Assembly (NCBI GenBank): GCA_965232605.1 | Contig: CBDDQA010000006.1 | Coordinates: 159,077-223,076 of the forward strand | Source: an uncultured Candidatus Binatia bacterium | GTDB lineage: Bacteria; Desulfobacterota; Binatia; Bin18 | Length of the DNA stretch: 64,000 nucleotides | Direction: 5' to 3' | In this document: positions 6,128 to 61,177 of the stretch, piece by piece | How the letters are laid out: each line of letters begins with the position of its first letter | How positions within the stretch are numbered: the stretch's first letter is position 1 | Program-made: the position numbers and the translations under genes | Notes under the pieces: model-generated | Databases searched by the model: none | Told to the model about the DNA's origin: nothing | Seen by the model: only the letters and a program-made list of their open reading frames with translations

Positions 6128-6520
6128 TCACGCGGCAAGAACGTTGATATCTCGGCACTCGATCAGGCGCTGGTCCGCCGTGACAAGGGTCAGATCGAAT
6201 GTCTTTGCAGTGGCGGCGATGAGACGGTCCGCGGGGTCGCGATGCGGAAGATTGATGGACGCGCTCCCCAGCACCACATCCATCGTGAGGGGAATTTCTG
6301 AGACCGGACTTGCGGACATGGCCTTGCGCAACCATCTCGGCCCGTCCGGTTCCAGGACAAGCCGCCCCCGCTCGGCCAGCAGCAGAGTCTCCCACAAGCT
6401 GATAGACGCAAGGCGTAGCGCCGTCCCGCGCGCGGTGAGGGTGTCACGCACTGTGATTGAGAGCCGGTCCGGGTCAAGCAGACTCCAGAGCCAAATATGC
6501 GTATCAAGAAGTAGCGACAT
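6128..6520 (-). CDS. vapC: PIN-domain toxin VapC.
   Basis: LLDTHIWLW...D...TAD PIN acidic-residue pattern. 130 aa. Start overlaps the vapB stop. Confidence 0.9.
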   Translation of the reverse strand: MSLLLDTHIWLWSLLDPDRLSITVRDTLTARGTALRLASISLWETLLLAERGRLVLEPDGPRWLRKAMSASPVSEIPLTMDVVLGSASINLPHRDPADRLIAATAKTFDLTLVTADQRLIECRDINVLAA

Positions 6521-6781
6521 TTACGGGCTTGTCTTCCCAGGGCTATCGACCAAAACCTCCCAGTCGTCCGGCGCGGCGGCGGGCTCGACGAGGTCGCCGA
6601 TGATGGCGCCCCGTCTCCGCATGGCACCCAACCAGGCGTCGGAGGGAGCCTTTGTCGGAGGGATGACCTCGGCGACCGGCTTGCCAAAACGGGTTATCAG
6701 GACCGGCTGTCCCGTTCTGCCAACACGGTCAAGGACGGCCAGGCAGGTGGCCTTGAATTTCGAAATTTGAATTTCTTCCAT
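6521..6781 (-). CDS. vapB: Phd/YefM-type antitoxin VapB.
   Basis: MEEIQISKFKATCLAVLDRVGRTGQPVLITRFGKPVAEVIPP. 86 aa, abutting vapC. The longer tracked ORF (6521-7060) is an artefactual upstream extension. Confidence 0.8.
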   Translation of the reverse strand: MEEIQISKFKATCLAVLDRVGRTGQPVLITRFGKPVAEVIPPTKAPSDAWLGAMRRRGAIIGDLVEPAAAPDDWEVLVDSPGKTSP

Positions 6782-6852
6782 GATCGAATCGTACCATGGT
6801 ATCAGACCATGGTCTATTACTTCGGTCATCAGCATTATGAGGGCTGGTTGAA

Positions 6853-6990
6853 CACATGACCGGATTTGCCGAATCCACCGTCGAAACCGCCGCCCTAGCC
6901 TGGCTCGAAAATCTCCGCCCACGAACTGGACCATGCCCGATACGCTAGGCGCAGAGCGTGGTGAATACGGAATGGTGGTGCTGGAACGAC
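6853..6990 (+). pseudogene. Decayed second copy of the hsdR 5' end (MTGFAESTVETAALAWLENL...[17 protein letters not shown]) carrying internal deletions.
   Basis: Alignable by eye to hsdR nt ~2766-2910. No intact downstream ORF. Confidence 0.65.
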
Positions 6991-6997
6991 CATGAGC

Positions 6998-7096
6998 GCC
7001 TTGACCCCCGGATATAAACGCGCGATGGTGCCGGAACTGCCACAGTCGGAGGGAAGCCAATGACCACGGTCGGCACGGGCAAAATGGTCGGCGCCC
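6998..7096. repeat. Copy 2 of the ~99-bp direct repeat. This is the functional coxL-like promoter/RBS/start.
   Basis: See copy 1 (5935-6033). Confidence 0.8.
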
Positions 7097-9441
7097 AGGT
7101 GAAACGGGTCGAAGACCCGCGGGTGCTGTTGGGTCACAGCCAGTATGTCGATGATATCCACCTGCCCGGCGCCCTCGGGGTCGCGTTTGTCCGCAGCCCC
7201 TACCCGCATGCCCGGCTGCTCACGGTCGATGTCAGCGCCGCTCAAGCGTCTCCAGGGGTAGAGGCGGTCTTGACCGGGGCGGATGTGACCCAGGCGATCC
7301 GCCCCCTGCGCGTGGAGTATGATCCGGCCAAGGCCCCGAAACATAAACCGTGCAACTGGTCGGTGTTAGCCCAGGGCAAGGTTCGCTTCGTGGGAGAACC
7401 GGTGGCGGTCGTTGTCGCCTCGGACCGCTACACGGCAGAGGATGCCGCGGCTGGCGTGACAGTCGAGTATGAGCCCCTGGAGGTTGTGCGCGATATCGAA
7501 CAGGCCATGCAGCCGGACGCCCCGCTCATCCATGAGGAATGGGGCGACAATCTCATGCAGACGGTGGACATGCAGGCCGGCGCGATTGCCCAGGCTTTTC
7601 AGGCGGCAGATTGCATCGTGGCCGAGCGCTTTGCGACCGGTCGGCATGTGGCGCTGCCCATGGAAGCCCGTGGCTGTCTGGCCCACTATGAGCCGGCTTC
7701 AGGCTCCCTGACACTGTGGTCCTCGACCCAGGTGCCGCATCTGATGCGGGCTCACCTGGCCCGCCTGCTCGACTTTCCCGAGCACCATATTCGGGTCATC
7801 GCCCCGGATGTCGGCGGGGGGTTCGGACCCAAAGCCTACGTCTATCCCGAGGAAGTCCTGCTGACCTTTCTTGCCAAGCATATCGGCCGCCCGGTCAAGT
7901 GGATCGAAGACCGACGCGAAAACCTGTCCGCCTCGACCTTGCAGGCCAAGCAGCAAGTCGTGCAGGCGGAACTCGCCCTGACCAGGGAGGGGACTATCCT
8001 GGGGGTGAGGGGGCGTTTTATCTGCGACGTGGGGGCCTACTCGGCCTATCCGTGGGGCTCTGCCCTGGAGGCCGGCATGGCGGCTTCGGCCTTCCCAGGA
8101 GGCCCCTATAAGGTCCCGGCCTTCCGCTGCGAGGCCCTGTCGGTTGTGACTAACAAGACCACGAGTGGGGCCTATCGTGGGGTGGGTTTGCCGGTCAGCA
8201 TTCTGGTCATGGAACGCCTGCTCGACCTGGGGGCACAGAAACTGGGGCTCGACCCGGTCGAGCTGCGCCTGCGTAATATGATCCGCAAGGAGGAACATCC
8301 CTATCAGACCATCACCGGGGTTGAGATCGAAAGCGGCAGCCACCGGGAGGCTCTGCAAAAGGCCCTGGGCATGCTCGACTACCCGGCTTTCCGGGCCGAG
8401 CAGCAACAGGCGAGACAACATGGGCGCTACCTCGGCGTTGGCCTGGGCTGTTATGTCGAGAGCTCGTCCTACAGCTATCGCAGTTTTGAGCCGGTCGGCA
8501 TCACCTGGGGCGGCTATGAATCGGCTACCGTACGCATAGACGCAAACGGCAAGGTCACCGTCCTGGTCGGCACCCACTCGCACGGCCAGGGCCATGAGAC
8601 GACGTTTGCCCAGGTTGCGGCGGACGAGCTGGGTGTGCCCGTGGCTGACGTCAGGGTGATTCAGGGAGATACCACGACCGTTCCGCACGGCTGGGGAACG
8701 TGGGCCAGCCGCAGTGCCGTGCTCGGCGGCGGCGCCATTATTCAGGCGTCGAGCCAGTTGCGGGAGAAAATTCTGCGCACGGCCTCACGCCTGAGCGAAG
8801 TGCCGCAAGATGACCTTGAACTGGCCGAGGGATTAGTCCGGCGCAAGACGGATAGCCTGGTACTCATGCCGTTGCAGGACATCGCTCACCTGCTGGTTGT
8901 CCAGGCACCGGCAGGTCTACCGGAAGACGAAGAACCGGGTTTGGAGGCAACTGCGCACTACACCCCACCGCCCTGGACCCACGCCAACGCCACGGTTGTG
9001 GCGACGGTCGAGGTGGATATCGAAACCGGCTCCGTCCGGCTGCTGCGGCTGATTGTGGTCGAAGACTGCGGCACAATAATCAACCCGTTGGTGGTTGACG
9101 GACAGATCCAGGGCGGCGTGGCTCAGGGCATCGGATCGGCCCTGTACGAGCAGACGGTGTACGACGAGAACGGCCAACTGCTGACGGGGACGCTGATGGA
9201 CTATCTGGCTCCCACCGCGGTGGACGTTCCTCGGGTCGAAATCGGACATATCGAAACCCCAGCGCCGAACACGCCGCGCGGCATCAAGGGCATGGGCGAA
9301 GGCGGAGCCATTTCACCGCCGGCAGCCATAGCCAACGCCGTGGCGGACGCCCTGGCACCGTTGGGGGTACGGGTCAACGAGATTCCGCTCACCCCGGAGC
9401 GGGTTCTGGTCCTGATCGACCAGGCACGCCAGGGGGCGTGA
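7060..9441 (+). CDS. Xanthine dehydrogenase family molybdopterin-binding large subunit (CoxL/aerobic CO dehydrogenase-like). No adjacent medium or small subunits.
   Basis: N-terminus MTTVGTGKMVGAQVKRVEDPRVLLG and C-terminal GMGEGG motif. 793 aa. Confidence 0.9.
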   Translation: MTTVGTGKMVGAQVKRVEDPRVLLGHSQYVDDIHLPGALGVAFVRSPYPHARLLTVDVSAAQASPGVEAVLTGADVTQAIRPLRVEYDPAKAPKHKPCNWSVLAQGKVRFVGEPVAVVVASDRYTAEDAAAGVTVEYEPLEVVRDIEQAMQPDAPLIHEEWGDNLMQTVDMQAGAIAQAFQAADCIVAERFATGRHVALPMEARGCLAHYEPASGSLTLWSSTQVPHLMRAHLARLLDFPEHHIRVIAPDVGGGFGPKAYVYPEEVLLTFLAKHIGRPVKWIEDRRENLSASTLQAKQQVVQAELALTREGTILGVRGRFICDVGAYSAYPWGSALEAGMAASAFPGGPYKVPAFRCEALSVVTNKTTSGAYRGVGLPVSILVMERLLDLGAQKLGLDPVELRLRNMIRKEEHPYQTITGVEIESGSHREALQKALGMLDYPAFRAEQQQARQHGRYLGVGLGCYVESSSYSYRSFEPVGITWGGYESATVRIDANGKVTVLVGTHSHGQGHETTFAQVAADELGVPVADVRVIQGDTTTVPHGWGTWASRSAVLGGGAIIQASSQLREKILRTASRLSEVPQDDLELAEGLVRRKTDSLVLMPLQDIAHLLVVQAPAGLPEDEEPGLEATAHYTPPPWTHANATVVATVEVDIETGSVRLLRLIVVEDCGTIINPLVVDGQIQGGVAQGIGSALYEQTVYDENGQLLTGTLMDYLAPTAVDVPRVEIGHIETPAPNTPRGIKGMGEGGAISPPAAIANAVADALAPLGVRVNEIPLTPERVLVLIDQARQGA

Positions 9442-9484
9442 GACCGGCAAAACAGAGGAGCAGCCTCGGGTCTGAGTCCGCTCA

Positions 9485-10036
9485 TCACCTGCCGGTCTTC
9501 ATCTTGAAGCGGAAGTCGCAGTACTGGGCGCCCTTCATGATCGTTTGCGTCCGGGTCATGGTGACCTCAGGACCGCCCACCGCTTCGATATCCACGTCCA
9601 TCTCACACGTCAGCAGCGCGCCCAGCTCGGGTTCTCCCAGTTGCCGGAAGAAATCCGCGTAGCGGCAACTGGTGATATTGAACTCCCAGGCCTCTGGCTC
9701 CCGCTTGAGCGTCTCAAGGTCTACATCACCGCCGACCCGTTTCAACATGGCCTCATTGATGGCGTCCCATTTCTGCCGGGGGCTACCGGAGAGCTGGCCG
9801 CCGATTTCCTGGTAAAGCTTGCCCGACCACTCCCGCAGGGCCTGGCTGGCAATCTGGTTCGCCCGCTCCTCGCCCAACTCGGCCCGAAAGGCGCGGAGCA
9901 GAGGCACGAGCACCTGGGCTTGAATCTGGACCTTTTCAAGCAGGGAGAGACCGATCTTGCCAAACGCCGGCGCAAAAATATCCGGAGTAGCGTCCTCTTG
10001 CTGCTCGTTCGCCTTCAGATCATCGGTACTCGCCAT
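9485..10036 (-). CDS. L-2-amino-thiazoline-4-carboxylic acid (ATC) hydrolase-family protein, divergent from Rieske gene 1.
   Basis: C-terminal pattern ITSCRYADFFRQLGEPELGALLTCEMDVDIEAV...TRTQTIMKGAQYCDFRF. AGGAGG RBS before the ATG at 10036. The tracked ORF has a spurious 5' extension. Confidence 0.6.
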   Translation of the reverse strand: MASTDDLKANEQQEDATPDIFAPAFGKIGLSLLEKVQIQAQVLVPLLRAFRAELGEERANQIASQALREWSGKLYQEIGGQLSGSPRQKWDAINEAMLKRVGGDVDLETLKREPEAWEFNITSCRYADFFRQLGEPELGALLTCEMDVDIEAVGGPEVTMTRTQTIMKGAQYCDFRFKMKTGR

Positions 10037-10250
10037 AGCATTCCTCCTGTATTCATGGGCTGCACTTGGGGCAGCCGAGTTATGAGAATACCAGAGCAAA
10101 CCTCTAGGGGGCATGTCAACGAGCGGAACGCAATTAGTTCTCCGCAGCTCTTGACACAATCGATTTGAAAGATGCAGAAGGGCTGTGAGAGAGCGAGAAT
10201 TGAACCGAACGATTCTTGAGAAGATCACGCCAAAATAGGGAGGGATTGCC

Positions 10251-11444
10251 ATGCAAACCGCGACGGAGAACAGACGCTGGTCAAAGGAATACCCCGAGTT
10301 GGGGACGGGACCCGTGCCGGCGGAATCGTGCATTTCCCCGGAGTATTTTGAGCTTGAACGCGAACGGGTCTTTCGCCGTACCTGGCTCAACGTGGGCCGC
10401 GTCGATGATATTCCCAACGCGGGCGACTTTTTCGTGCGCGAGCTGGCGGTGTGTAAAACCTCGATTCTGGTCATCCGAGGCAAGGACGGCGTCATCCGCG
10501 GCTTTCACAATGTCTGCTCGCACCGTAGCAACAAGCTGGTCTGGGAAGAGCGTGGGACCTGCCGTGGGGCCTTAGCCTGCCATTTTCATAGTTGGGGGTA
10601 TAACGCCCAGGGGCAACTCACCGGCGTCCCGGACGAAGAGAACTTCCACGATATCAATAAGAGCGAGCTGGGACTCACCCCGGTGACTACCGACATCTGG
10701 GAAGGGTTTATCTTTGTCCATCTGGGTTCACAGCCCCAAGAGACGCTCACCGACTATCTGGGTGGCGTGGCTGACCAGATGAAAGGGGCCGCCTTTCATA
10801 AACGAAAACACACCCACACGTATAAAGTTGAAGAGCAGGCCAACTGGAAGGTTGCCCTGGACGCCCAGAACGAGGCGTATCACCTGCCCTTCCAGCATCG
10901 CTATTCCTTTCCCGGGATGTTCGTCCTCAAAGACAACCGCTATCTGCGTCTCTCGGGTGTGAAGCTGTATAATCATCACGCGGTCTGGTCGACCACCTAT
11001 AATTCGGAAAGTACGCCGACGCCGACTGGGGCGCTCATGAACCAGCTCAATACGGCCACCACCAACAGCCGCCTGCCCATGCTGGGGGATTTCGACTTTT
11101 TTGTGATCTTTCCCAATTTTGTCATTCTCCAGTTTCGGGGCATCGAAGACGACTATTACATGACCTATAATTTCTGGCCGCTGGCGGTGGATCGCTGCAT
11201 CTGGGAGATCAAATTTCATTTCCCGCCCGCCGAAACGGCCGGCCAGCGACTCAGCCAGGAATACCTCAAACACCGCATCTGCGATGTGCTCCAAGAGGAC
11301 GCCGTGGCGCATGAGACCCTGCAAACCGGTCTGAGCTCGCGGGCGAAAACACATCTCATCCTCCAGGATGATGAGATCCAGATTCGGCATTTTCACAAAG
11401 TGTTGGAAGACTATATGGGGTTCTTCAACGGACGGGGGCACTGA
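10251..11444 (+). CDS. Rieske [2Fe-2S] non-heme-iron oxygenase alpha subunit (paralog 1).
   Basis: CSHRSNKL...CHFHSWGY Rieske motif. Catalytic domain with E..H..YH/D ligand pattern. Confidence 0.9.
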   Translation: MQTATENRRWSKEYPELGTGPVPAESCISPEYFELERERVFRRTWLNVGRVDDIPNAGDFFVRELAVCKTSILVIRGKDGVIRGFHNVCSHRSNKLVWEERGTCRGALACHFHSWGYNAQGQLTGVPDEENFHDINKSELGLTPVTTDIWEGFIFVHLGSQPQETLTDYLGGVADQMKGAAFHKRKHTHTYKVEEQANWKVALDAQNEAYHLPFQHRYSFPGMFVLKDNRYLRLSGVKLYNHHAVWSTTYNSESTPTPTGALMNQLNTATTNSRLPMLGDFDFFVIFPNFVILQFRGIEDDYYMTYNFWPLAVDRCIWEIKFHFPPAETAGQRLSQEYLKHRICDVLQEDAVAHETLQTGLSSRAKTHLILQDDEIQIRHFHKVLEDYMGFFNGRGH

Positions 11445-11767
11445 TGGCCGAAGTGCCTCTGCCGGAGCCGTTTCAGGGCCTTGAGCCGTTCAGGGTCTGG
11501 GCCCTGGCCACGGAGCGCGAGCGTCGCGCCAAGCGTCTGTCCAGCAGCATGGAGGAGATTCAGGCGTTCTACGACGCGCTCTTTCCCCAGTTGGAGGCCG
11601 TGGTTGCCTATCTCGACCAGTTTCCGCTTGACCAACTCCCCGCACAGGCGCAGCCGCTCTACTATCTGACGCTTTCGCTGGTGGAAGTCACCAGCGCCGT
11701 AGAACTGTATCACAATCCCCATATCTTTGAGGCCATTGAGCCCGCCCGCTTCCGGCGAGTGGAATAA
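11444..11767 (+). CDS. Conserved ~107-aa protein of unknown function, translationally coupled to Rieske alpha 1. Paralogs at 28840 and 35999.
   Basis: ATGA overlap with the upstream stop. Shared motif WALATE.ER...RLSSSM..IQ..YD.L.P..EAV..YL..FP. No Cys, so not a ferredoxin. Confidence 0.6.
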   Translation: MAEVPLPEPFQGLEPFRVWALATERERRAKRLSSSMEEIQAFYDALFPQLEAVVAYLDQFPLDQLPAQAQPLYYLTLSLVEVTSAVELYHNPHIFEAIEPARFRRVE

Positions 11768-11807
11768 ACCTCTCACGAACGGTTTTCATTAGAAAGGAGC
11801 AGCGGCC

Positions 11808-12581
11808 ATGGCTGGGCAATTAGACGCAAGGGTAGCGCTGGTAACTGGTGGCGGCTCGGGCATTGGACGTGCCTCGGCGGTGGTTTTTGCCAGAGAAGGC
11901 GCCAGAGTTGTTGTTGCCGACGTGGATGAGGACGGCGGACAGGAGACGGTTCATCTGATCGAGGCGGCCGGCGGAACGGCGCGGTTCGTCCGCGCGGATG
12001 TCTCCCAGGCGGCGGAGGTGGCCGCCCTGGTCGAGCAGGCCGTTGCCACCTATGGCCGTTTGGACTGCGCCCTGAACAACGCCGGTATCCAGGGGGACAT
12101 CAAGCAGACCGCCGAGTGCAGCCAGGAGAACTGGGACCGGATTATTGCGACCAACCTGACCGGTGTGTGGTTATGTATGAAACACGAGATTCCGCCTATG
12201 TTGAGCCAGGGCGGAGGCGCGATCGTCAATACGGCCTCGAACTTCGGGCTGGTGGGCTCGAACGGGATGCCGGCCTATTCGGCCAGCAAACACGGCGTCC
12301 TCGGTCTGACGAAAACCGCGGCCCTGGAGTATGCCAAGTCCGGCATTCGGGTCAACGCCGTCTGCCCGGGGCCGGTCCAGACGCCGCTGGTCGATAAGGT
12401 CCTGGCCGCCCAGCCCGAGCTGGGAGACCAGATCATCAAAGCCATCGAGGCCAGGGAGCCGGTGGGGCGCATGGGGCAACCGGAGGAGATTGCCGAGGCC
12501 GTGGTCTGGTTGTGTTCCGCCGCGGCCTCTTTTGTGACCGGAACGGCCATGTCCGTGGATGGCGGCTTTGTCACGCAGTAG
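11808..12581 (+). CDS. SDR-family oxidoreductase.
   Basis: TGGGSGIGRA Rossmann motif, NNAG, YSASK catalytic motif. Confidence 0.9.
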   Translation: MAGQLDARVALVTGGGSGIGRASAVVFAREGARVVVADVDEDGGQETVHLIEAAGGTARFVRADVSQAAEVAALVEQAVATYGRLDCALNNAGIQGDIKQTAECSQENWDRIIATNLTGVWLCMKHEIPPMLSQGGGAIVNTASNFGLVGSNGMPAYSASKHGVLGLTKTAALEYAKSGIRVNAVCPGPVQTPLVDKVLAAQPELGDQIIKAIEAREPVGRMGQPEEIAEAVVWLCSAAASFVTGTAMSVDGGFVTQ

Positions 12582-14661: not shown

Positions 14662-15555
14662 ATGGAGCACGAGCGTTTCAGTTATTCACCGATTGTCGAG
14701 CGTAAACCGCTACGGTTTCCGAACGGCGCTCGCGTCGCGGTCTGGGTGATTCCCAACATCGAGCACTTTCACTTCGACAAGCCTGCGACCTCGATCACGC
14801 CGGTCACGGCGCATCTGAAGCCCGATGTCCTGAACTACTCCTGGCGCGATTACGGCGTACGGGTCGGCATCTGGCGCATGATGGAGGTCATGGATCAATA
14901 TAACGTGCCGGGTACGGTCGCCCTGAATTCGGAGGTCTGTGCGCACTATCCGCAGATCATCGAGGCCGGCAATCAGCGGCACTGGGAGTGGATGGGACAC
15001 GGCACGACGAACTCGGTGCTTCTCAACGAGCAAACCGAGGTCGAGGAACGGGCACTGATCCGGGACGTGGTAGACACCATCCGGTCGGCAACCGGGACCG
15101 CCCCCAAAGGCTGGCTGAGCCCGGCGCTGAGCGAATCCTACCGGACGCCAGACCTGCTGGCGGAGCATGGGATCGAGTACGTCTGCAACTGGGTGAATGA
15201 CGAGCAGCCCTACCCGATGCGGGTCGCCCAGGGACGCCTGATCTCCATGCCCTACTCGGTCGAGCTCAACGACATCCCGGCCTTCCTTGAGCGTGGCATG
15301 TCTGCGGAAGAGTTCTACCGGATGATCGTGGATCAGTTCGACGTGCTGTACGAGGACGGGGCCAAGACCGGGCGGGTCATGGCGATCTGTCTGCATCCCT
15401 TCCTGATCGGTCATCCCTTTCGCAGCAAATACTTCGCCAAGGCGCTCGCCCACATCACCCAGCGCGAAGAGGTGTGGATTGCCAAGGGCGGGGAGATCGC
15501 AGACTGGTATACGACCCACTATCTGGATGGGCTTGATGAGAGGGGTCAAGCATGA
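14662..15555 (+). CDS. Polysaccharide deacetylase (NodB-homology, PuuE-like) family protein.
   Basis: Family-typical length and His/Asp pattern. The stop overlaps the next start. Confidence 0.8.
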   Translation: MEHERFSYSPIVERKPLRFPNGARVAVWVIPNIEHFHFDKPATSITPVTAHLKPDVLNYSWRDYGVRVGIWRMMEVMDQYNVPGTVALNSEVCAHYPQIIEAGNQRHWEWMGHGTTNSVLLNEQTEVEERALIRDVVDTIRSATGTAPKGWLSPALSESYRTPDLLAEHGIEYVCNWVNDEQPYPMRVAQGRLISMPYSVELNDIPAFLERGMSAEEFYRMIVDQFDVLYEDGAKTGRVMAICLHPFLIGHPFRSKYFAKALAHITQREEVWIAKGGEIADWYTTHYLDGLDERGQA

Positions 15556-15806
15556 AAACGCGTAAAAGCAAGGAGCTCGGACAGTACATCGTCGTAGACC
15601 CGGACATCTGTCATGGCCAGCCGACCTTCAAGGGAACCCGGATCATGGTCAAGAGCGTCCTTGAAATGCTTGTCAAAGGCTGGGACTGGGATCGGATCTC
15701 GGCGGCGTATGATAGCCGGATCGATCACGACGCAATCGCTGAGGTCCTCTCGCTTGCGGGCGAGGCTCTCATCGAAAAGGCTGAAGAACGGCAGCGGGCG
15801 GCGTGA
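15552..15806 (+). CDS. DUF433-domain protein (antitoxin-like), pair 1.
   Basis: Motif VDPDICHGQPTFKGTRIMVKSVLEML. Overlapping start and stop with neighbours. Confidence 0.8.
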   Translation: MKTRKSKELGQYIVVDPDICHGQPTFKGTRIMVKSVLEMLVKGWDWDRISAAYDSRIDHDAIAEVLSLAGEALIEKAEERQRAA

Positions 15807-16189
15807 ACATTCTGGATGAAGACATCAGCGTCCTCGAACGAGATAGGCTCCGCGCTCGCAAGATTCACTTCCGACAGATTGGTTTTGAAATCGGTCGTTT
15901 CGGGATGAAGGATCGAGACGATATCATCCCGTTGCTGCATACTCTTCGCCGTCCAACGTTTTTCACACGCGATCACGGTTTCTACCATCCCAGCTTGATT
16001 CATTCCGCTTACTGCCTCGTGTATCTTGACGTCGCTTTCGATGAGACCGCCGAATTCATCCGCCGTTTCTTACGGCATCCCGCCTTTCGTACACAGGCAC
16101 AGCGCATGGGAAAAGTCGTCCGCGTCCACCGCAACGGGGTGAGTTACCGGCAAGTGCACATGAAAAAGGCTCAGGCGCTCCGCTGGTGA
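15803..16189 (+). CDS. Divergent DUF5615-like PIN-like protein (putative toxin partner of the DUF433 protein).
   Basis: ILDEDIS...FFTRDHGFY...LVYLDV pattern parallels the canonical DUF5615 protein at 59592-59969. Confidence 0.55.
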   Translation: MNILDEDISVLERDRLRARKIHFRQIGFEIGRFGMKDRDDIIPLLHTLRRPTFFTRDHGFYHPSLIHSAYCLVYLDVAFDETAEFIRRFLRHPAFRTQAQRMGKVVRVHRNGVSYRQVHMKKAQALRW

Positions 16190-16327
16190 CCAAGCCTCTC
16201 GTGCTGGGTTCTGCAGTTTCATTCGAATATATGCACTAGCCTTCTTAATAACAGAAGGTTAAGACTAAAAAGCTTATAGTCCAAGCACTTAGGGCCTCTA
16301 ATCGACTATAATAGAGAAAGGAGAGCG

Positions 16328-18265
16328 ATGGTCTGGGATGATAAGCTAGAAGGAACCCATCGAGAAATTGCGGCTGAAGCGAGTTCACCCATCCAAGTGC
16401 TCGCTGGTCCAGGGACGGGCAAGACATTTGCTATGATGCGCCGTGTAGCCCGATTGCTCGAAGATGGTATTAACCCGGAACGTATCTTGGCAGTAACATT
16501 CACCCGTACCGCAGCCCGAGATCTCAAAGAACAGCTTTCCAACCTTGGTATCGAAAGCGCAGAAGATGTCCAGGCGGTGACACTCCATGCTCTCTGTTAC
16601 TCAATACTCGCAAAAGAAGAGTTTTTCGATGCTACGGGTCGTAAAGCCCGTCCCCTCCTCTCGTTTGAACGAGACCAACTCGTCAATGATCTATCTGGAA
16701 ATTTTCAAGGAAAGCAAAAAACGAAAGCCTTACTGGAGGCTTACGAAGCCGCGTGGGCACGCTACCAGTTCGAGGAGGCCGGATCACCCACGGAGTCTAC
16801 GGATCAAGCGTTCCAAAGCGTCTTACTCGACTGGTTGGGTTTCCATCGCTGTATGTTGATCGGAGAACTTGTCCCACTCACGCTCTCATATGCTCAACAG
16901 AATCCAGCGTTGAGTCTGTTACCAGAATTTGATCACGTGCTTGTTGACGAGTACCAAGATCTCAATAAGGCCGACCAAACGTTAGTTGAGACGCTTGGCC
17001 AATCGGGATCATTTGTTGTGATTGGTGACGATAATCAATCGATCTACAGCTTTCGGCATGCGAATCCAGAAGGAATACGGACGTTCCAGGACACCCATGC
17101 TGGAACGACAGCTTTCACGATTGACGAATGTCGGCGATGTCCTCCCAACATCGTTGAGATGAGCAATTCGCTTATCAGCTATGACCAGAGACGGTCTAGG
17201 CCCGTCCCTCTCACACCCGATCCTAGCCGCCCTCTTGCGAGTATCTATATTGTCCAACATCAAACTGCGGACGAAGAAGTTGGCAGTACCGCAGACTATG
17301 TAGACCATTATTTGAACGTCCATCCAGATATCAACCCTGGACAAGTCTTGGTCCTTGCTACGCGACGATTCATAGGAAACCGTATTCGCGATGCGCTAAT
17401 CTCTCGTCGAAGAAATGCCCTGAGCTACTTTTCTGAGGACGCGGTGGAGAAACCTGCCGCCGCGCAAGGATTTTGTCTGTTGACCTTACTCGTTTTTCCT
17501 GAGGACCGGGCCGCTCTGCGTGCATGGTTTGGACTCGGCCAAACGGAGAATGGATTCTCGAAGCAGTACGCACGAGTACGTGCACATGCACAAAATGAAG
17601 GTATAGAAATTCGTGAAGTCCTTGAGCGACTAAGAGCGGGAGCCATAACAATCGCCCATACAGCAGGGATTCTTGCCCGTTACGCAGAACTGAAGGGGCG
17701 CCTGAACGCACTTTCGTCTCTAAAAGGATTGGAACTCGTGAGTGTGCTCTGGCCTTCTAACGAAGAAGATTCCCGACATATACGTGTTCTAGCGGAGAAC
17801 TTAGCCATTGAAGACGGAGAACCGTCAGATCTGTTAGAGGCGCTCCGTCATGAAGTCACGCAGCCTGATTTACCAGACTCCACCGGTGATGTGATACGGG
17901 TCATGAGTCTCCATAAGTCGAAAGGGCTCACCGCGTCTTTGGTTATCGTCACCGGTTGCATGTCTGGCACCCTGCCGACCATTACGACGGGTGCCTCACA
18001 AGTAGAGAGGGATCGTCAATTTGATGAGCAGAGACGATTATTTTATGTAGCGATCACCAGGAGTACCAACACGTTGGTGATAAGCTCAGCGATAACTCTG
18101 CCAAATAGTGAGGCGCTTGCTAATGGCATCGACATTCTTCGAGCTAGACGTGTCAATGGCATCTGGACAGCTTGGACTTCAGCAAGCCCCTTCATTGCAC
18201 AGCTAGGGTCATCAGCTCCCAGCCCTCTAACGACAAGCTTATGGCGAGCCCAAGCTGGCTTCTAG
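16328..18265 (+). CDS. Stand-alone UvrD/Rep-like SF1 helicase (645 aa) in a lower-GC islet.
   Basis: Motifs GPGTGKT (I), TFTRTAA (Ia), LVDEYQD (II), VIGDDNQSIY (III), VMSLHKSKGL (V), YVAITRS (VI). Local GC is about 50% versus about 63% in the flanks. Confidence 0.9.
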   Translation: MVWDDKLEGTHREIAAEASSPIQVLAGPGTGKTFAMMRRVARLLEDGINPERILAVTFTRTAARDLKEQLSNLGIESAEDVQAVTLHALCYSILAKEEFFDATGRKARPLLSFERDQLVNDLSGNFQGKQKTKALLEAYEAAWARYQFEEAGSPTESTDQAFQSVLLDWLGFHRCMLIGELVPLTLSYAQQNPALSLLPEFDHVLVDEYQDLNKADQTLVETLGQSGSFVVIGDDNQSIYSFRHANPEGIRTFQDTHAGTTAFTIDECRRCPPNIVEMSNSLISYDQRRSRPVPLTPDPSRPLASIYIVQHQTADEEVGSTADYVDHYLNVHPDINPGQVLVLATRRFIGNRIRDALISRRRNALSYFSEDAVEKPAAAQGFCLLTLLVFPEDRAALRAWFGLGQTENGFSKQYARVRAHAQNEGIEIREVLERLRAGAITIAHTAGILARYAELKGRLNALSSLKGLELVSVLWPSNEEDSRHIRVLAENLAIEDGEPSDLLEALRHEVTQPDLPDSTGDVIRVMSLHKSKGLTASLVIVTGCMSGTLPTITTGASQVERDRQFDEQRRLFYVAITRSTNTLVISSAITLPNSEALANGIDILRARRVNGIWTAWTSASPFIAQLGSSAPSPLTTSLWRAQAGF

Positions 18266-18339
18266 ATCAGGATCAATACGTTGACAGCACCCTCACCACG
18301 TCATACGACTGCTGACAGCAAAAAGGGGGTGCGAGACCT

Positions 18340-19332
18340 ATGACCGCTGTCAAACTGGACGAACCGCTATCGATTCTCATTCTGCTCGGGCTGACCCTGC
18401 CCGAAGTGTCTGAGGGCGACCTGGCAAAGATTCAGGCCGCGGCGCCCGGCTCGACCGTCAAGGTGGCTCCTCGGGTGGGCGATGCCATTGCCATGGCCGA
18501 TGATGTCGCGGTCATCCTCGGTTTCCTGCCCGAAGCATTATTTCAGGCCGCTCCCCGCCTGCGCTGGGTGCATGCCATCGCCTCGGGGGTGGATATGTTT
18601 CTCTACCCGGCGATGCGGGACTCCGACGTGGTGCTGACCGGCGAGAAAGGCCTGGTAGGCGGACACCTGGCGGATACCGGGTTCGGCCTGCTCCTGGCGC
18701 TCACCCGCCAGATCGCAACCGCCATCCGCCTCGGCTCGGCCAGTTGGCAGGAACGTGAGGCCATGCGCCGCAAAGAGATTGAGCTTGAGGGGCTGACCAT
18801 GGGCATTGTCGGCTTCGGGGGGACCGGTCGGGCCATGGCCCGCCGGGCGGTGGCGTTTGGTATGCACGTGTTAGCCCTGGACGAGCAGCCCGTCCCGGCG
18901 TCGGACGGAGTGGAGGCGGTGTGGGGACGGGAGCGGTTGGCCGAGTTGCTGGCGGCCTCTGATGTGGTTGCGATCTGCTGTCCGCTCACAGCCGAGACGC
19001 GGCAGATGTTCAATGCGGCAACGTTCGACCACCTGAAGCCGGGCGCGCTGCTGGTCAACGTCACCCGGGGTGAGATCATAGACGGGGAGGCCCTGGTACA
19101 GGCGCTGCAAGACGGCCGGTGTGGCGGCGCGGCGCTCGATGTCGCCCCGGTCGAGCCCCTGCCGGCCGATCATCCCCTGTGGACGTTCGAGAACGTCGTC
19201 ATGACGCCACACACGGCCGGCGCCAGCCAACTGCGCGCGACGCGCAACCTCGACCGTTTTTGTGAGAACCTGCGCCGTGCCCAGCGAGGCGAGCCCCTCC
19301 TCGGGGTTGTCGACAAACAGCTCGGCTACTAA
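18340..19332 (+). CDS. D-isomer-specific 2-hydroxyacid dehydrogenase family, NAD-binding.
   Basis: GIVGFGGTGRAMA Rossmann motif and catalytic R/E/H pattern. Confidence 0.85.
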   Translation: MTAVKLDEPLSILILLGLTLPEVSEGDLAKIQAAAPGSTVKVAPRVGDAIAMADDVAVILGFLPEALFQAAPRLRWVHAIASGVDMFLYPAMRDSDVVLTGEKGLVGGHLADTGFGLLLALTRQIATAIRLGSASWQEREAMRRKEIELEGLTMGIVGFGGTGRAMARRAVAFGMHVLALDEQPVPASDGVEAVWGRERLAELLAASDVVAICCPLTAETRQMFNAATFDHLKPGALLVNVTRGEIIDGEALVQALQDGRCGGAALDVAPVEPLPADHPLWTFENVVMTPHTAGASQLRATRNLDRFCENLRRAQRGEPLLGVVDKQLGY

Positions 19333-34302: not shown

Positions 34303-34668
34303 ATCTCCCTCCTTCCGACGTTATCGCCTATCAATTCGGGGGTACGATAGCAAACGATACTGGAGAAGTCATAAGGGACGTTACAGTCTTAGCGGGGCAA
34401 TGGCAACGATGAGGGGAAAAGTGGGTCACGTGAAAGTGAAAGGTCAGGGATTTGTAATGCGCATCTCTACTGAAGTCACTGAACGGCTCAACCGCTTCTG
34501 GAGTACGTCCCGTTTCGTAAAATGGCTCATTTTCTGACGAATCGTTGCCGGCTCCCATAAAGGACGTCCGTTTTGAAAAGGCGCCCGCCTTTACAGCATT
34601 GACAGCCTGAGGCCGGCTCACGTAGTTAGGGCGCGGGGAAAAAATAGTTCGTTGTGAGGGAGGGCTCT

Positions 34669-49926: not shown

Positions 49927-50514
49927 TCATTCTGAGAGGCGAAGGTAAAAAATGACAACAGGCATCTTCGCGAAGGGAAATTCTCTCAATACCGTCACCA
50001 CCTCGCCCAGATACTGCTGCAAGGTTTCCTGCGGGTGGGGATGCAGATGGATAAAGATAAACCCGCCACAGATGTCTGTGGTAACCCGAGTCAGAGCATA
50101 TTCCTTTTTTTCGAAATCAAAGAACATCTCCTCTTCCGGCACCCCGACCAGTTGGCCGTCTGGGGCATACGTCCAGCCGTGGAATTTGCACGTCAATTTC
50201 TGGCACGAACCCGACCCATGCCAAGCAAGCTTATTCCCTCGATGTTTACACACATTATGGAAAGCCCGCACCACGCCGTCCTGTCCGCGAACCACAAGAA
50301 TCGAGGTATTGCCCACGGCAAGGTCCTGAACAAAGTAGTCTCCGGCCTGCGAAATTTCTTCTACTCTTCCGACGTTGAGCCATACCCGCCGAAAGATCCG
50401 TTCACGTTCCAACTCAAAGTATTCCGGCGAAATATAGGATTCAATCGACGCTGGGCCGGTTCCCAGCTCAGGATATTGTGTGGTCCAGCGTGGCTTGTTG
50501 GTGGCAGGCTCCAT
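49927..50514 (-). pseudogene. Truncated Rieske oxygenase alpha subunit. The Rieske domain is intact but the catalytic domain is missing, and the ORF ends where the GatC-like/amidase cassette begins.
   Basis: The first 180 aa are near-identical to paralogs 1 and 2 (CKHRGNKL...CKFHGWTY). The sequence diverges and stops after FPFAKMP. Confidence 0.65.
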
Positions 50515-52461: not shown

Positions 52462-52544
52462 GGTCTTGAGATTCAAGTATTTTCTGCGGCCCTTTCTGGC
52501 CCATGCTCTTTTCGCGGCGGGTGCGGGATTTGTATAAGAATCAA

Positions 52545-53192
52545 TTATGGATTGATAATGACTTCGTGGGCCGGCCCTTTGAATAATATCTCTAGCCGGT
52601 TCAGTACGTCTCGCCCAAGAATCCGTTCTTGACCAGTGAAGTCTGCTTGCAGCCGACACGGATAGTTTCTACCATCAAAGAATGCCCACGCTCGAAAAAC
52701 TAATGTCGCAGTAGCTGTTTCTCCAACACCTCCCATCAAACCCGGGACACCCTCTTGTGGATCGAAGGCTAACTGCTCGCAGTCTGCCCACGGAAGCGCA
52801 CTGGCATCCGCACCCGTATCTGGAATCACCTTCTCCAGTATAGTCCCCGGAGTTTCAGCCTGCTTTCGAAATTCTACAGTCATCACCGGCAGCGCTTCGC
52901 CAGGATACCCGTCGTCATACGGAAATATAGCTCGGCGCATACGACAGGGTTCATTTTCATGTCCGACGCATGTGACAAAAGGGTGGAGTTCTGACTCCTG
53001 GGCCGCATGAAAGACTTCCACCGGACTGCTCCCAGATACAATCACCTGACCGTTTGCGAAGCCAACCCACTGGTCGTGATATTGCGAGAGTAACTGTTCA
53101 CGCTGCGCCCAGTACTCGGCTTCATTTTTACACCAGTCAGGGTGAATCTTCTGAGCCACTTCCGGCGGCAGGCCTTCAATCAGGCTTTTCAT
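52545..53192 (-). CDS. Protein with a C-terminal retropepsin-like (clan AA, DTGA) aspartic protease domain.
   Basis: VIPDTGADASALP...ILGRDVL pattern. Local GC is lower than the flanks. Confidence 0.5.
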   Translation of the reverse strand: MKSLIEGLPPEVAQKIHPDWCKNEAEYWAQREQLLSQYHDQWVGFANGQVIVSGSSPVEVFHAAQESELHPFVTCVGHENEPCRMRRAIFPYDDGYPGEALPVMTVEFRKQAETPGTILEKVIPDTGADASALPWADCEQLAFDPQEGVPGLMGGVGETATATLVFRAWAFFDGRNYPCRLQADFTGQERILGRDVLNRLEILFKGPAHEVIINP

Positions 53193-53391
53193 ACAACACC
53201 TCAAAGGAACTCGTCCTATTTTTTCCAAGGATTATACACCGATACCGACTCCGGTAGCGAGCCGGGGAAGCAGGAATCGACTCGGTCTCAGGTCGGGAGA
53301 CCCATTTTCGCTTGACAGTAGCCGTTCCGGTGCACTAGGACGGAGACACGGGAGAGGCGCGGAGAGTACGCACTATTTCTTTCAGTCAACA

Positions 53392-54009
53392 TTGAGCGGG
53401 AGGAGGGACACTATGGCACGGCTCAGTCTCGTGGACCACAAGCAGATGAGTCCGCAGTATGCGCAACTGGTGGAACGGGTAAAAAGCGCTGACGGTTATG
53501 TCAATTTTCTGAGCATGATGGCCCACCGCCAGGAGGTCGTTGAGCCCATGTGGCGGGCCTATGTCGATATGTTCGAGGAGGGCGTTGTCGAGCCACCCCT
53601 CAAGGAGTTGGTCCGCATCAAAATTGCCTATCTGAACGGGTGTTTATTTTGACAGGGCTTTCGCTACGCATCGGTGATGCGGAAAGGACTGACCGAAGAA
53701 AAAATCGCCCAGCTTGAGGATTATGCAAACAGCCCGGCCTTTACTCCGCGCGAAAAGAGCGCCCTCCGGTTTGCCGAGAAGCTGGCCATTGACTATGACT
53801 CGATTGATAACGACGAGTTCTTTATCGGGCTCCAACAGCATTTTACCGACGCCGAGATCGTCGAGCTCGGTATCGTGATCGGCTATGACATCGCTTTTGG
53901 TCGGCTGCTGCGCGTGTTTGACGCCGACCCGAAGGTGTGTGAGGTTCCGGAGCATCGTGAGGTTGGCATAGACGTTGCCGAATCTCCGGCTCTGTCCACA
54001 GCAAAATAA
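53392..54009 (+). CDS. AhpD/carboxymuconolactone decarboxylase-family protein with an in-frame TGA at 53650-53652. It is a candidate selenoprotein with a CxxU motif (NGCLF-U-QGF).
   Basis: The two tracked ORFs (53392-53652 and 53674-54009) are in the same frame, separated by a single TGA plus 7 codons. The TGA sits at the position of the second Cys of the family's NGCxYC redox motif. A SECIS-like hairpin follows immediately. Confidence 0.55.
53653..53691 (+). promoter_or_regulatory. SECIS-like stem-loop directly 3' of the in-frame UGA: CAGGGCUUUC-GCUA-CGCAUC-GGU-GAUGCG-GAAAG-GACUG.
   Basis: Lower stem CUUUC/GAAAG, 4-nt bulge, 6-bp upper stem, GGU apical loop with G and U. Position is 1-40 nt after the UGA, as in bacterial SECIS elements. 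Confidence 0.45.
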
Positions 54010-59043: not shown

Positions 59044-59595
59044 TTGGAACGAAGAATCGGTATACTCGCCCTGAGTCTGATCCCCGTCTTCTGTCTCGGT
59101 CTCGTTAATCTCTCCTTTTCCGATGATGCGATTCGTCTGGAAAGCTGGCGGCAGAGGCCGCATGAGGGCAACTTTGCCCAAGGGATTGCGGGAGTCTACC
59201 TCATTCGTCGCCTCACAGACGAGGGAACGCCGAGTTCCTTCCGCTTGATTTCCTTAACCGCAGAGGGGCACTGGGCCAGCACCCATTCCGGTCAGCACGA
59301 CAGCTTCGGTTCCGCCCGATTCAGTGACCAACACGGGGTCTGGGCGCGGTCGGGCTGGCGGGAAATTACGGCGGAGGTGGTCGATTTCAACCTCGACGCC
59401 GCGACCGGAGCGCATACCGGTATCGTGCGCGTCCGTTATGTAGTGCAATTCAGCAAAGATTTACAGTCCCTCACCGGCACGCAGATGGGACGAGTCTTTC
59501 CGCTCGACCAAGACCCGTTTGACCCTGATGCCGTGCCAGCCTTTCGGTTTGGCTCGCCATTCTCAGGACGGCGCGTGACGGTCGAGTCCGATTAG
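59044..59595 (+). CDS. Hypothetical secreted protein with an N-terminal signal peptide.
   Basis: Hydrophobic N-terminus ILALSLIPVFCLGLV. No recognisable domain. Confidence 0.45.
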   Translation: MERRIGILALSLIPVFCLGLVNLSFSDDAIRLESWRQRPHEGNFAQGIAGVYLIRRLTDEGTPSSFRLISLTAEGHWASTHSGQHDSFGSARFSDQHGVWARSGWREITAEVVDFNLDAATGAHTGIVRVRYVVQFSKDLQSLTGTQMGRVFPLDQDPFDPDAVPAFRFGSPFSGRRVTVESD

Positions 59596-59969
59596 CAATG
59601 GCGCATGTGCTGAGGTAAGCTCCGCAGACGATAGCGGTGGGGTTCTACGACGCAATAGCATTGCTTGAGATACTCTTCCGTATGTTCTCTCAAGAGGCGT
59701 TGTAGCTGTTGATGGGCGTCCTCAAAATCGGAGGGAGTTATACGGAGAAGAATAACACCTTTCGATGAAGCGACTTTCAAGAAAACCAACGCCCCAAAGT
59801 CCTTATCCCTCGTGAGAAAAATCCTATCCAACTCCAATGCTTTCCGTAAAAGTGCCTCATCCTCTGTTCGGTGCAGGCCCAATTCCTTGGCAGTGACAAC
59901 GTTGTGCCCTTCTTGCCTGAGCCAGAGAATTGTAGAGTGGTAAACGTCCTGATCGGTCAGGAGGCGCAT
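59592..59969 (-). CDS. DUF5615 PIN-like protein (toxin-like), pair 2.
   Basis: MRLLTDQDV...LTRDKDFG pattern. Confidence 0.75.
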   Translation of the reverse strand: MRLLTDQDVYHSTILWLRQEGHNVVTAKELGLHRTEDEALLRKALELDRIFLTRDKDFGALVFLKVASSKGVILLRITPSDFEDAHQQLQRLLREHTEEYLKQCYCVVEPHRYRLRSLPQHMRHC

Positions 59970-60202
59970 TATGCAGTTTCGAGATGGATCTCTTCGGCCC
60001 GAACGAGTTCCGTAGCATAGGCCATACAGGCTTTCACATCGTCAATATCAAGGTCGGGGTAATACTTTTCACTAATCTCCTCAAAGGAAATGCCTTCTTG
60101 GGCCAGTTCCAGAACATGCTCAACTAATATCCGTGTCCCCCGGATACACGGTTTTCCGAAATGGACTTGTGAGTCCACACTGAGACGGTCACGATACTTC
60201 AT
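59969..60202 (-). CDS. DUF433-domain protein (antitoxin-like), pair 2.
   Basis: VHFGKPCIRGTRILVEHVLEL motif. Overlapping start and stop with the DUF5615 gene. Confidence 0.8.
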   Translation of the reverse strand: MKYRDRLSVDSQVHFGKPCIRGTRILVEHVLELAQEGISFEEISEKYYPDLDIDDVKACMAYATELVRAEEIHLETA

Positions 60203-60292
60203 AGAATGTCCACCCCCCTGAGTGTCAGTCTGAGATATCTGAGCGTGCCTCTGAGATAAACAGTCACCTCACCCCTGCTCGTTCAACCACAC

Positions 60293-61177
60293 TTAACGTG
60301 GGTCGTTGGGAAGCGCACGCTGAGTGAAACCGACAACCATGCCAAAGGCTTGCTCCGGCCCGAGAATGATGGTGTCTGCGCCGTCCGGTTCGGGTCGGAG
60401 TTGCTTGTCTCTCAGAAAGTCCTGGGCTTGGCCGAGGTTCGCGGTCTTGAATATCAGGGAATAAATGCCCTCGCCGTTTTGCTCCAACTCTTGGCCTTCC
60501 GGGCTGGTCGCAGAGAGCGGCTGGACCAGTTCCACGATCGTATCTTCCCCAATAGCAACAAAGGCACTCTGCTTGCGGCCCTCGGTGTGCTCCTCGTGGA
60601 GCAGGGTTCCGTCCAGCATGTCGCAATACAACCGCTTGGCCGCGGACAGGTCTCTGACGACGACACCGATATGCGAGGCGCGCTGGATGCCGAGCGGATG
60701 CTGGCGCCAGGGGTCGCTGGACCAATCCGGTTCCAGGCGCGGATCGGCGATGTAATCGCCGGACAGGGCAAACTCCAGTTGACCGGGGGTCTGTCTCGGA
60801 TGCGTCCAGATGGCCGCCGTGTCATACGGTGGCTTTACCGTTTTGCCGACCAGGTTATACAGCCGCAGGCCGGCCGTATCGAGCCGGGCGGCAATGGCCG
60901 CAACATCATCCACATACCAGGCGATGGAGTGGAAGTGCCGCCCGAAACGGTCGTGAAATTTTTTCACCGACGGGTTTTTGAGGTTCTCCACGCGGGCGGG
61001 CATCATCGGCTCCATGATGACGTCCCCGATGGCAATCAGGGAGGCGTTGCGTCCGGCCAGCTCTTCATAGCCGTTATAGAAGCGCGTGACCGAGAACACG
61101 TCGTCATACCACCGGTCAACAGCTTCGAGGTCGTCCACAACATGGGTGAGATGAAACAGCTTGCCTATGGTGAACAT
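60293..61177 (-). CDS. Two-module VOC-family protein (glyoxalase/extradiol-dioxygenase fold).
   Basis: Two beta-alpha-beta-beta-beta modules with His/Glu metal-ligand pattern. GGGGAGG RBS. Confidence 0.75.
   Translation of the reverse strand: MFTIGKLFHLTHVVDDLEAVDRWYDDVFSVTRFYNGYEELAGRNASLIAIGDVIMEPMMPARVENLKNPSVKKFHDRFGRHFHSIAWYVDDVAAIAARLDTAGLRLYNLVGKTVKPPYDTAAIWTHPRQTPGQLEFALSGDYIADPRLEPDWSSDPWRQHPLGIQRASHIGVVVRDLSAAKRLYCDMLDGTLLHEEHTEGRKQSAFVAIGEDTIVELVQPLSATSPEGQELEQNGEGIYSLIFKTANLGQAQDFLRDKQLRPEPDGADTIILGPEQAFGMVVGFTQRALPNDPR

Follow-up and report, generated by a model that had tools for sequence, protein, structure and literature searches.

In defence, no UvrD-like helicase is known except as the partner of an effector: GajA in Gabija, DarT in DarHTG and, in type II Gabija, the MazF-like GajC. 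A 2026 domain-centric screen validated the last two, type II Gabija as a GajB homologue with GajC and DarHTG as the UvrD-like DarH with DarTG (PMC13069673). In this study, we examined a 64,000-nucleotide (nt) stretch of the genome of an uncultured Candidatus Binatia bacterium (contig CBDDQA010000006.1, positions 159,077 to 223,076; hereafter the window), in which a UvrD/PcrA-type helicase gene stands behind a DUF433/DUF5615 gene pair in an islet of 2714 bp. Comparison with related loci indicates that the islet is carried as cargo in a small hotspot of recombination, flanked by the genes for a polysaccharide deacetylase and a 2-hydroxyacid dehydrogenase, and that it consists of two independent mobile modules. 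One is a two-gene cassette of the toxin-antitoxin (TA) type with a PIN-like DUF5615 member; the other, a single gene, encodes a catalytically complete superfamily 1A (SF1A) helicase of an uncharacterised family of about 645 amino acids (aa). We hold this structural description with much higher confidence than the functional proposal, considered below, that the helicase serves immunity.

The other described system that bears on this gene is Hma, defined by PADLOC (PMC8565338). Payne et al. reported that 62.7% of Hma systems contain embedded genes, and that seven of nine tested candidates among them defend autonomously (bioRxiv 10.1101/2024.01.29.577857). No helicase appears among the candidate types in the text and figure legends of that preprint, and the UvrD matches in its accessible tables are weak P-loop matches of other proteins only (bioRxiv 10.1101/2024.01.29.577857). 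A 2026 survey treats Hma as a DUF499-centred, BREX-related system and leaves UvrD unmentioned. In the accessible parts of these sources, that is, the Hma-embedding preprint, the BREX/DUF499 survey and the domain-centric screen, the present helicase family is not described as a defence gene.

Genomic Context and Variability of the Islet

The three open reading frames (ORFs) of the islet lie on the + strand (Table 1), exactly as a first-pass annotation of the window had called them, between two metabolic genes, that for the deacetylase on the left and that for the dehydrogenase on the right. The annotation had also pointed to a drop in guanine-cytosine (GC) content, and the calculation bore this out: the GC content is 0.515 in the islet and 0.600 in the window, it falls from about 0.62–0.65 in the flanks to 0.50–0.54 inside, and the islet is the lowest-GC stretch of 2714 bp in the whole 64 kb, which rules out a uniform composition. 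The helicase gene has a GC content of 0.509 (z −2.5) and a third-codon-position GC content (GC3) of 0.474 (z −3.1 against the 59 other ORFs), whereas the GC3 of the 128-aa gene is intermediate (0.612) and that of the DUF433 gene host-like (0.706). The anomaly in composition therefore comes mainly from the helicase gene.

Table 1. Features of the islet and its right border, in coordinates of the window.
Feature	Position	Strand	Remarks
DUF433 gene, 84 aa	15552..15806	+	antitoxin-like first gene of the pair; Pfam DUF433, 5.1e-15
Divergent DUF5615-type (PIN-like) gene, 128 aa	15803..16189	+	putative toxin/nuclease of the pair
AT-rich intergenic spacer, 138 bp, 5' of the helicase gene	16190..16327	+	read from the sequence
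UvrD/PcrA-type SF1A helicase gene, 645 aa	16328..18265	+	predicted domains 1A-1B-2A-2B; Pfam UvrD-helicase, AAA_19, UvrD_C
Right junction, host-type sequence 5' of the 2-hydroxyacid dehydrogenase gene	18266..18339	+	common to the islet-less relative L094

The same site was found in four configurations among relatives of the window, with flanks that are 92–95% identical. In L001, L002 and L003, whose helicases are 87% identical to that of the window, the order is deacetylase, DUF433, toxin, helicase and 2-hydroxyacid dehydrogenase, as in the window; a 1-nt deletion shifts the frame of the toxin gene in L001 and in L002, and gene calling in L003 gives no more than a 64-aa ORF at its place, while the helicase gene is intact in each of them. 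In L004, an IS630-like element (L004:840-1860) has entered the spacer between the toxin gene and the helicase gene, with the final ~95 bp conserved downstream of it, and five extra genes lie between the helicase and dehydrogenase genes (L004:3820-6940), four of them longer than 100 aa. They comprise a 184-aa NTP_transf_2/MNT protein with weak PDC-S09 matches and ORFs of 314, 288, 43 and 158 aa; neither Pfam nor PADLOC recognised the ORFs of 314, 288 and 158 aa, and the one of 43 aa, compared with Pfam alone, gave no match. The initial 110 bp of the DUF433 gene recur, at 86% identity, at L004:4353-4463. A further configuration is that of L094, whose flanking proteins are 92–95% identical to those of the window and which has none of the three islet genes. 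A 0.8-kb segment at the islet site (L094:5143-5905, minus strand) carries a pair that reads from its translations as HEPN/MNT, and its MNT gene, at 89.6% nt identity, is the one that follows the helicase on the right in L004.

The right border of the islet is sharp, as the alignment of the window, L001 and L094 is collinear from CAATACGTTGACAGC on, directly after the stop codon of the helicase gene. On the left side, about 120 bp that stand between the deacetylase stop codon and the DUF433 start codon in L001, L002 and L004 are missing in the window, between two CGTGAAA repeats. This loss (at 15540-15560) extends the deacetylase gene by a few codons, so that its stop codon overlaps the ATG of the DUF433 gene; read-through from the metabolic operon may now reach the TA pair of the window. 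A search for tRNA genes in the window found none, and one of 15300-18500 for flanking repeats or att sites yielded short repeats at chance level only.

Horizontal acquisition of the islet, as proposed in the first-pass annotation, is supported by the outlying composition together with the polymorphic site, at which L094 holds a HEPN/MNT pair instead and L004 an expanded mosaic. The annotation had further taken the TA pair and the helicase for a single islet, and in this respect it has to be revised. L091 and L093 have the pair but no helicase, about 48 loci have the helicase but no pair (no DUF433/toxin pair was found beside any other helicase of the family there), and frameshifts affect the toxin gene where the helicase gene is undamaged; for these reasons the two are independent modules.

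The spacer upstream of the helicase gene contains the inverted repeat CCTTCT-N7-AGAAGG at 16240-16258. A hexamer TATAAT (16307-16312) and a Shine-Dalgarno-like AAAGGAGAG at 16317-16325 are recognised in it by eye, and the helicase gene may have a promoter of its own; a consensus scan of the + strand matched none of the sigma-70 type. No Rfam family was matched in 15000-19000, and a non-coding RNA in the AT-rich spacer was rejected for want of an Rfam match at E ≤ 1.

Other low-GC patches of the window lie at 34331-34621 (−), 49927-50514 (−), 52501-53500 and 59501-60500, the last including an ORF at 59592-59969 (−). Their GC content is 0.50–0.54, with GC3 z values of the ORFs from −1.6 to −2.9, and they may be further small foreign inserts.

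Sequence, Predicted Structure and Evolution of the Helicase

The helicase matched Pfam UvrD-helicase (1.4e-42), UvrD_C (2.9e-15) and AAA_19. In an alignment of 32 family members (66% mean column identity; lengths 639–663 aa), motifs I, Ia, II, III, IV, V and VI were invariant, which places the protein in the SF1A superfamily and agrees with the earlier statement that all SF1 motifs are present. The motifs kept throughout the family include the Walker A sequence GPGTGKT (aa 27–33), DEYQD (207–211), GDDNQSIYSFR (233–243), motif V MSLHKSKGLT (526–535) and motif VI EQRRLFYVAITR (567–578), and motif IV has the family-specific form CRRCPPN. H11 (codon 16358-16360) is a histidine in at least 90% of the family and falls, in the register that we deduce, on the Q-motif glutamine of UvrD/PcrA; this replacement hints at an altered recognition of the nucleotide.

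The AlphaFold model of the helicase has a pLDDT (predicted local distance difference test) score of 89.5 and a predicted template modelling (pTM) score of 0.83. Its best PDB matches in Foldseek were full-length, DNA-bound UvrD, PcrA and Rep structures (4c2t, 2is1 and 3pjr; TM 0.70–0.76, 19–22% identity over about 680 alignment columns). In the model, the protein has all of the SF1A motor, 1A-1B-2A-2B, with the helical 2B domain complete, and it stops where the UvrD core ends. It contains no nuclease or other effector domain and no C-terminal tail of the UvrD type. In UvrD and PcrA, this extra C-terminal tail mediates contacts with partners. The helicase is indeed shorter than housekeeping UvrD/PcrA, as had been noted (645 aa against about 720–725 aa), but only because this tail is absent.

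The helicase shares with housekeeping UvrD, PcrA and Rep its four-domain architecture, its helicase motifs and its top PDB matches by sequence (UvrD1, PcrA, UvrD and Rep at 3e-33 to 7e-28) and by structure. It differs from them in being mobile, patchy in distribution and foreign in composition, in lacking the tail, in H11 and motif IV, and in its scores against the NCBIfam equivalog models. These scores were 173.4 for pcrA (cut-off 911.2), 136.7 for rep (951.45), 133.2 for PRK11773 (965) and 123.2 for uvrD (1144.45), and over all PcrA/Rep/UvrD models they ranged from 110 to 173 bits against cut-offs of 911–1168. Scores so far below the cut-offs, the absence of the gene at the site in L094, and a patchy spread with 53–61% identity across phyla support the view, already taken in the earlier annotation, that this is not a housekeeping helicase.

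Between the window and L001, nt identity is 92–96% in the flanks, the TA pair and the spacer (96% in the spacer itself), and 89% in the helicase gene. The latter shows 121 synonymous and 93 non-synonymous changes and no insertions or deletions (indels), with a non-synonymous rate (dN) of 0.066, a synonymous rate (dS) of 0.315 and a dN/dS of 0.21, whereas the dN of the flanking genes is 0.013–0.030. Amino-acid changes affect 23–25% of the sites in 2B and in the last 50 residues, and 11–12% in 1A/1B. The reading frame is intact in all five copies of this lineage, which are 87–99% identical. Judged from these rates, the helicase is under purifying selection yet evolves faster than its neighbours, mainly on non-catalytic surfaces. 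Because the SF1 motifs are invariant in the 32 members, the four-domain model is confident and dN/dS is 0.21, we consider the gene to be functional.

Among the known defence helicases, the protein resembles GajB: both are SF1A helicases of the UvrD type that have no nuclease domain and that occur in defence contexts and not in repair operons. The GajB profiles were its top-scoring defence models in PADLOC (best 5.7e-46; 155 bits in two pieces). The "GajB-like" label of the first-pass annotation nevertheless could not be upheld. PcrA scored higher (173 bits), the solved GajB chains (about 495 aa) aligned only to residues 200–280 at about 1e-6, as compared with 3e-33 for UvrD1, and GajB was absent from the best 50 Foldseek matches. 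There is also no gajA, the gene of the OLD-family ATPase-TOPRIM nuclease of Gabija, among the ten genes within about 6 kb. DarHTG and type II Gabija likewise have a UvrD-family helicase gene beside a TA-type nuclease module; however, the neighbouring pair in the window is independent of the helicase, and DarH is without the 2B domain that the window helicase has. A PADLOC match to "RTasHel" (153 bits) was set aside as a generic helicase match, since it covered residues 4–344 only, the N-terminal half, and no reverse-transcriptase model matched any of the scanned genes.

Distribution and Genomic Neighbours of the Helicase Family

A word-indexed search with a threshold of E ≤ 1e-10 returned 4618 proteins, among them more than 100 full-length ones at 53–61% identity, including entries from Gemmatimonadaceae and from actinobacteria of soil. 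A scan of one genome per species gave about 40 full-length family members (34–53% identity) in Acidobacteriota, Chloroflexota, Bacillota, Planctomycetota, Alpha-, Beta- and Gammaproteobacteria and Bacteroidota. The family is widespread, conserved in length and patchy across phyla, between which it appears to move. A set of 50,697 phage records contained no member, and the sole match in 72,556 plasmids was a partial copy (query residues 159–601; a 465-aa annotated gene) between insertion sequence (IS) elements on the conjugative Rhizobium plasmid pRL23b4; a phage or plasmid origin was rejected on these counts.

Clustering of all genes within four positions of the helicase revealed no constant partner. 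The only recurrent neighbours that were not syntenic were the three Hma genes of PADLOC, encoding an SNF2 helicase with NOV_C, a DUF1156 methylase and a DUF499 ATPase. The order hmaA, helicase, hmaB, hmaC was found in L012, L013, L015 and L018, which come from four phyla (Bacillota, Dehalococcoidia, Planctomycetota and Alphaproteobacteria), with 4-bp overlaps between the genes in L012. These embedded loci extend over L012:8-10183 and L013:6209-18939, and in L018 the helicase occupies 10001-11905, with HmaA at about 6430-9990 and HmaB from about 11940. Hma genes also adjoin the helicase in L019 and L032, and one hma gene is within reach in L017 and L050. The regular position and the codon overlap suggest that these loci may form a four-gene Hma subtype, in which the helicase may be a true fourth subunit instead of a randomly embedded gene or an independent system. 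In L014 (L014:9582-12315), an intact helicase gene lies between a 132-aa ORF, an internal part of HmaA, and a 136-aa ORF corresponding to the first 133 residues of HmaB (65% identity); this locus is probably a decayed Hma operon of which only the helicase survives. The members that sit between or directly beside hma genes (L012, L013, L015, L018, L019 and L032) belong to a sister clade; the helicase of the window is not embedded, and no Hma gene occurs among its flanking genes.

Defence genes of other kinds surround members of the window's own clade. In L005, ParB and DUF932 genes lie upstream and Avs2 (1689 bits) downstream; in L156, a relaxase (Replic_Relax), a ParB-like gene and DUF932 lie upstream, and Avs-like and TIR-TPR genes downstream. 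L008 has a SIR2 protein, a Type IIG restriction-modification (RM) gene and Dcm-Vsr-BglII, and L154 a Type I RM system, a CD-NTase with a patatin gene (CBASS-like) and an integrase. With the neighbours as tblastn seeds, 17 of 48 non-redundant family loci had a match within their flanks, which in 16 loci was to a defence gene and in the remaining one to nothing but an integrase; with so small a seed set, these figures are lower bounds. The Hma embedding and the Avs2, SIR2/RM and Type I RM plus CBASS neighbours are the grounds on which we regard the family as conflict-associated.

A second group of UvrD-like helicases (L052–L066; 576–652 aa, 27–32% identical to the window protein) lies between large Hma-like genes or adjoins HEC-05 or Type I RM genes, for example at L054:959-10207, L062:6551-14935 and L052:7436-14909. 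Systems of this kind seem to contain UvrD-type helicases more generally.

The DUF433/DUF5615 Gene Pair

The first protein of the pair belongs to DUF433 (PF04255; 55.5 bits against a cut-off of 23.6), and its gene is joined to the 128-aa gene, which starts with GTG, by a 4-bp GTGA start/stop overlap. The 128-aa protein itself matched no Pfam family even at E = 10 and likewise had no match in NCBIfam and PADLOC, and no precomputed Pfam domain stood against any of the 120 close homologues listed. When 71 diverse members of its family (35–60% identical to the window protein) were scanned one by one against Pfam, PF18480 (DUF5615) was matched by 50, at best with 6e-8, and PIN_10 and Mut7-C by two each. 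By transitive homology, given that 50 of the 71 members match PF18480, the window protein is of the DUF5615 type. The earlier DUF433/DUF5615 label thus stands in full for the first gene; for the second it holds through the family members and not through a match of the window protein itself.

At least 1464 homologues of the 128-aa protein exist, almost all of exactly 128 aa, and a profile search of 1.8 billion representatives gave 881 clusters at 50% identity. D5, E6, D37, D57 and E81 are invariant in this family and D76 nearly so, as would be expected for a PIN-like nuclease. The pLDDT of the AlphaFold model was only 55; the alternating strand/helix pattern and the acidic residues are compatible with a PIN-like fold, and a PDB profile search found nothing at E ≤ 10. 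The dN/dS of the gene against L004 is 0.18.

The order of DUF433 and 128-aa genes recurs without the helicase in L091/L092 and in L093, in unrelated contexts, with the same 4-bp overlap in L091 and L093. The pair shares with DUF433-DUF5615 PIN-like TA-candidate cassettes the gene order, the 4-bp overlap, the sizes and the PF18480 matches of its family members, whereas its subfamily is divergent, with about 60 extra C-terminal residues and no Pfam call for the window protein or any of its 120 listed close homologues. Taken together, the pair looks to be an autonomous two-gene cassette of the toxin-antitoxin type, with putative toxin and antitoxin roles.

In L053 (L053:12203-15062), some 1.5 kb downstream of a UvrD-like helicase of the second group, there is a DUF433 gene that has no DUF5615 partner. 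Its neighbours, read from translations, are a gene resembling a Type I specificity subunit and a 395-aa ORF taken for an ATPase.

Discussion

We propose that the helicase is an accessory immune helicase of a conflict-associated family, a functional proposal about which we are evenly divided. Driven by ATP, it would move 3'→5' along an invader's single-stranded DNA, for example at replication or recombination intermediates or at DNA ends, and would unwind that DNA or strip proteins from it. Replication would then be blocked, or the DNA exposed to nucleases of the host or of neighbouring systems, so that the helicase might act alone or with nucleases in trans. The polarity, the substrate and any anti-phage effect are inferred. 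The helicase is put forward as a credible defence-associated accessory helicase, and as a candidate only. A more specific form of the proposal, possible but doubtful in our view, is that of a helicase-only immune gene: the family would protect alone, without a nuclease, an NADase or any further effector, by mechanically dismantling invader replication or recombination intermediates or by nucleotide hydrolysis triggered by DNA ends, would also serve as a plug-in fourth subunit of Hma, and would have in the window copy its minimal, single-gene version.

Several observations weigh against an immune role. The helicase stands alone in the window, which holds neither a second UvrD-like gene nor a defence island and offers no local support for defence. 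The first-pass annotation had rightly described it as lacking an ATPase/TOPRIM partner: when the ten flanking genes (about 6 kb on either side) were run through PADLOC, nine had no match and the remaining one gave a weak oxidoreductase match. The association with defence suggested there is supported at the family level only. Even at that level, the Hma-embedded members form a sister clade, at 43–47% identity, and not the window's own, which leaves the argument from embedding one step removed, and three members of the window's own clade (L006, L010 and L155) have nothing recognisable beside them. Neither PADLOC-DB v2 nor NCBIfam nor Pfam has a dedicated model or name for the family, so that searches of these collections cannot label it as a system of its own. 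A negative control made of distant UvrD-like helicases (L052–L090) had to be dropped, as these also occur in HmaA/B, Type I RM and HEC-05 contexts; because that control was unusable, defence neighbours are reported as counts, with no enrichment statistic. An effector-less helicase, moreover, has no obvious way to kill a phage or a cell.

The row of ParB, DUF932 and helicase genes in L005 and L156 would fit a different role, one in the service of a mobile element. Here the helicase would act in replication, transfer or establishment of the element, for instance on incoming single-stranded DNA or in rolling-circle replication, or in counter-defence, and the window copy would be a stranded remnant. 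Rolling-circle plasmids and some integrative and conjugative elements (ICEs) need host helicases of the PcrA/UvrD type. The helicase gene is directly downstream of, and co-directional with, the ParB-like and DUF932 genes in both loci, with Replic_Relax further upstream in L156; an integrase shares the island in L154; and the single plasmid copy lies between IS elements of a conjugative plasmid. However, most family loci are without transfer genes: the 106 genes within 1.5 kb of the helicase, counted over the genome-derived loci and L005–L010, include one ParB (in L005), two integrases and one IS66 transposase, and the ParB and DUF932 seeds matched L005 and L156 only among the 48 loci. The near-absence from phages and plasmids, and the overlapping codons inside Hma operons in four phyla, also sit poorly with a transfer function, and in the lineage of the window the gene is intact and under purifying selection with no element around it. 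We regard this role as unlikely. A selfish or neutral hitchhiker, without current function and kept through the recency of its acquisition, would explain why there is no partner, no island and no obvious effector, why the neighbouring toxin gene is decaying in relatives, and why the dN of the helicase is three- to five-fold above that of the flanks. The intact frame in five lineage copies, the dN/dS of 0.21 without indels against L001, and the length and mean column identity kept across phyla make it quite improbable.

It would also be conceivable that the three genes form one system, in which the helicase senses invader DNA and activates the DUF5615 PIN-like nuclease held by DUF433, by analogy with type II Gabija and DarHTG. 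The genes are adjacent, co-directional and jointly inherited in the window, L001–L003 and L004, and helicase-plus-toxin defences have experimental support (PMC13069673). This association is confined to one lineage, however, with the pair known without the helicase and the helicase without the pair in about 48 loci, and the toxin is frameshifted (L001, L002) or reduced to a 64-aa ORF call (L003) where the helicase is conserved. An IS element lies between them in L004, the 138-bp spacer of the window has its own predicted ribosome-binding site, and GC3 values of 0.61–0.71 in the pair against 0.47 in the helicase suggest separate origins, so that a three-gene system seems very improbable. The least probable of the accounts considered is that of a host repair or replication paralogue, a UvrD/PcrA/Rep-like housekeeping or back-up enzyme of merely odd composition. 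The full UvrD/PcrA core fold with all catalytic motifs, the purifying selection and the position of some relatives among core genes (L010) speak for it; against it stand the equivalog scores of 110–173 bits where 911–1168 would be expected, the absence of the gene at the site in the close relative L094, the patchy occurrence across phyla, the foreign GC3, the location outside a repair operon and a protein that ends with the helicase core.

Returning to the proposal of an accessory immune helicase, the family occurs in many phyla and has no fused or constant partner, yet it lies repeatedly inside Hma operons and in Avs, SIR2, RM and CBASS islands. Protection by the helicase alone would mean that an SF1A motor with nothing added can serve as an immune effector or sensor; a genuine role as fourth subunit of Hma would provide a handle on the mechanism of Hma and of the DUF499, BREX-related systems. 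The site itself is a compact example of a hotspot in the chromosome where modules of TA and defence type are swapped among nearly identical strains.

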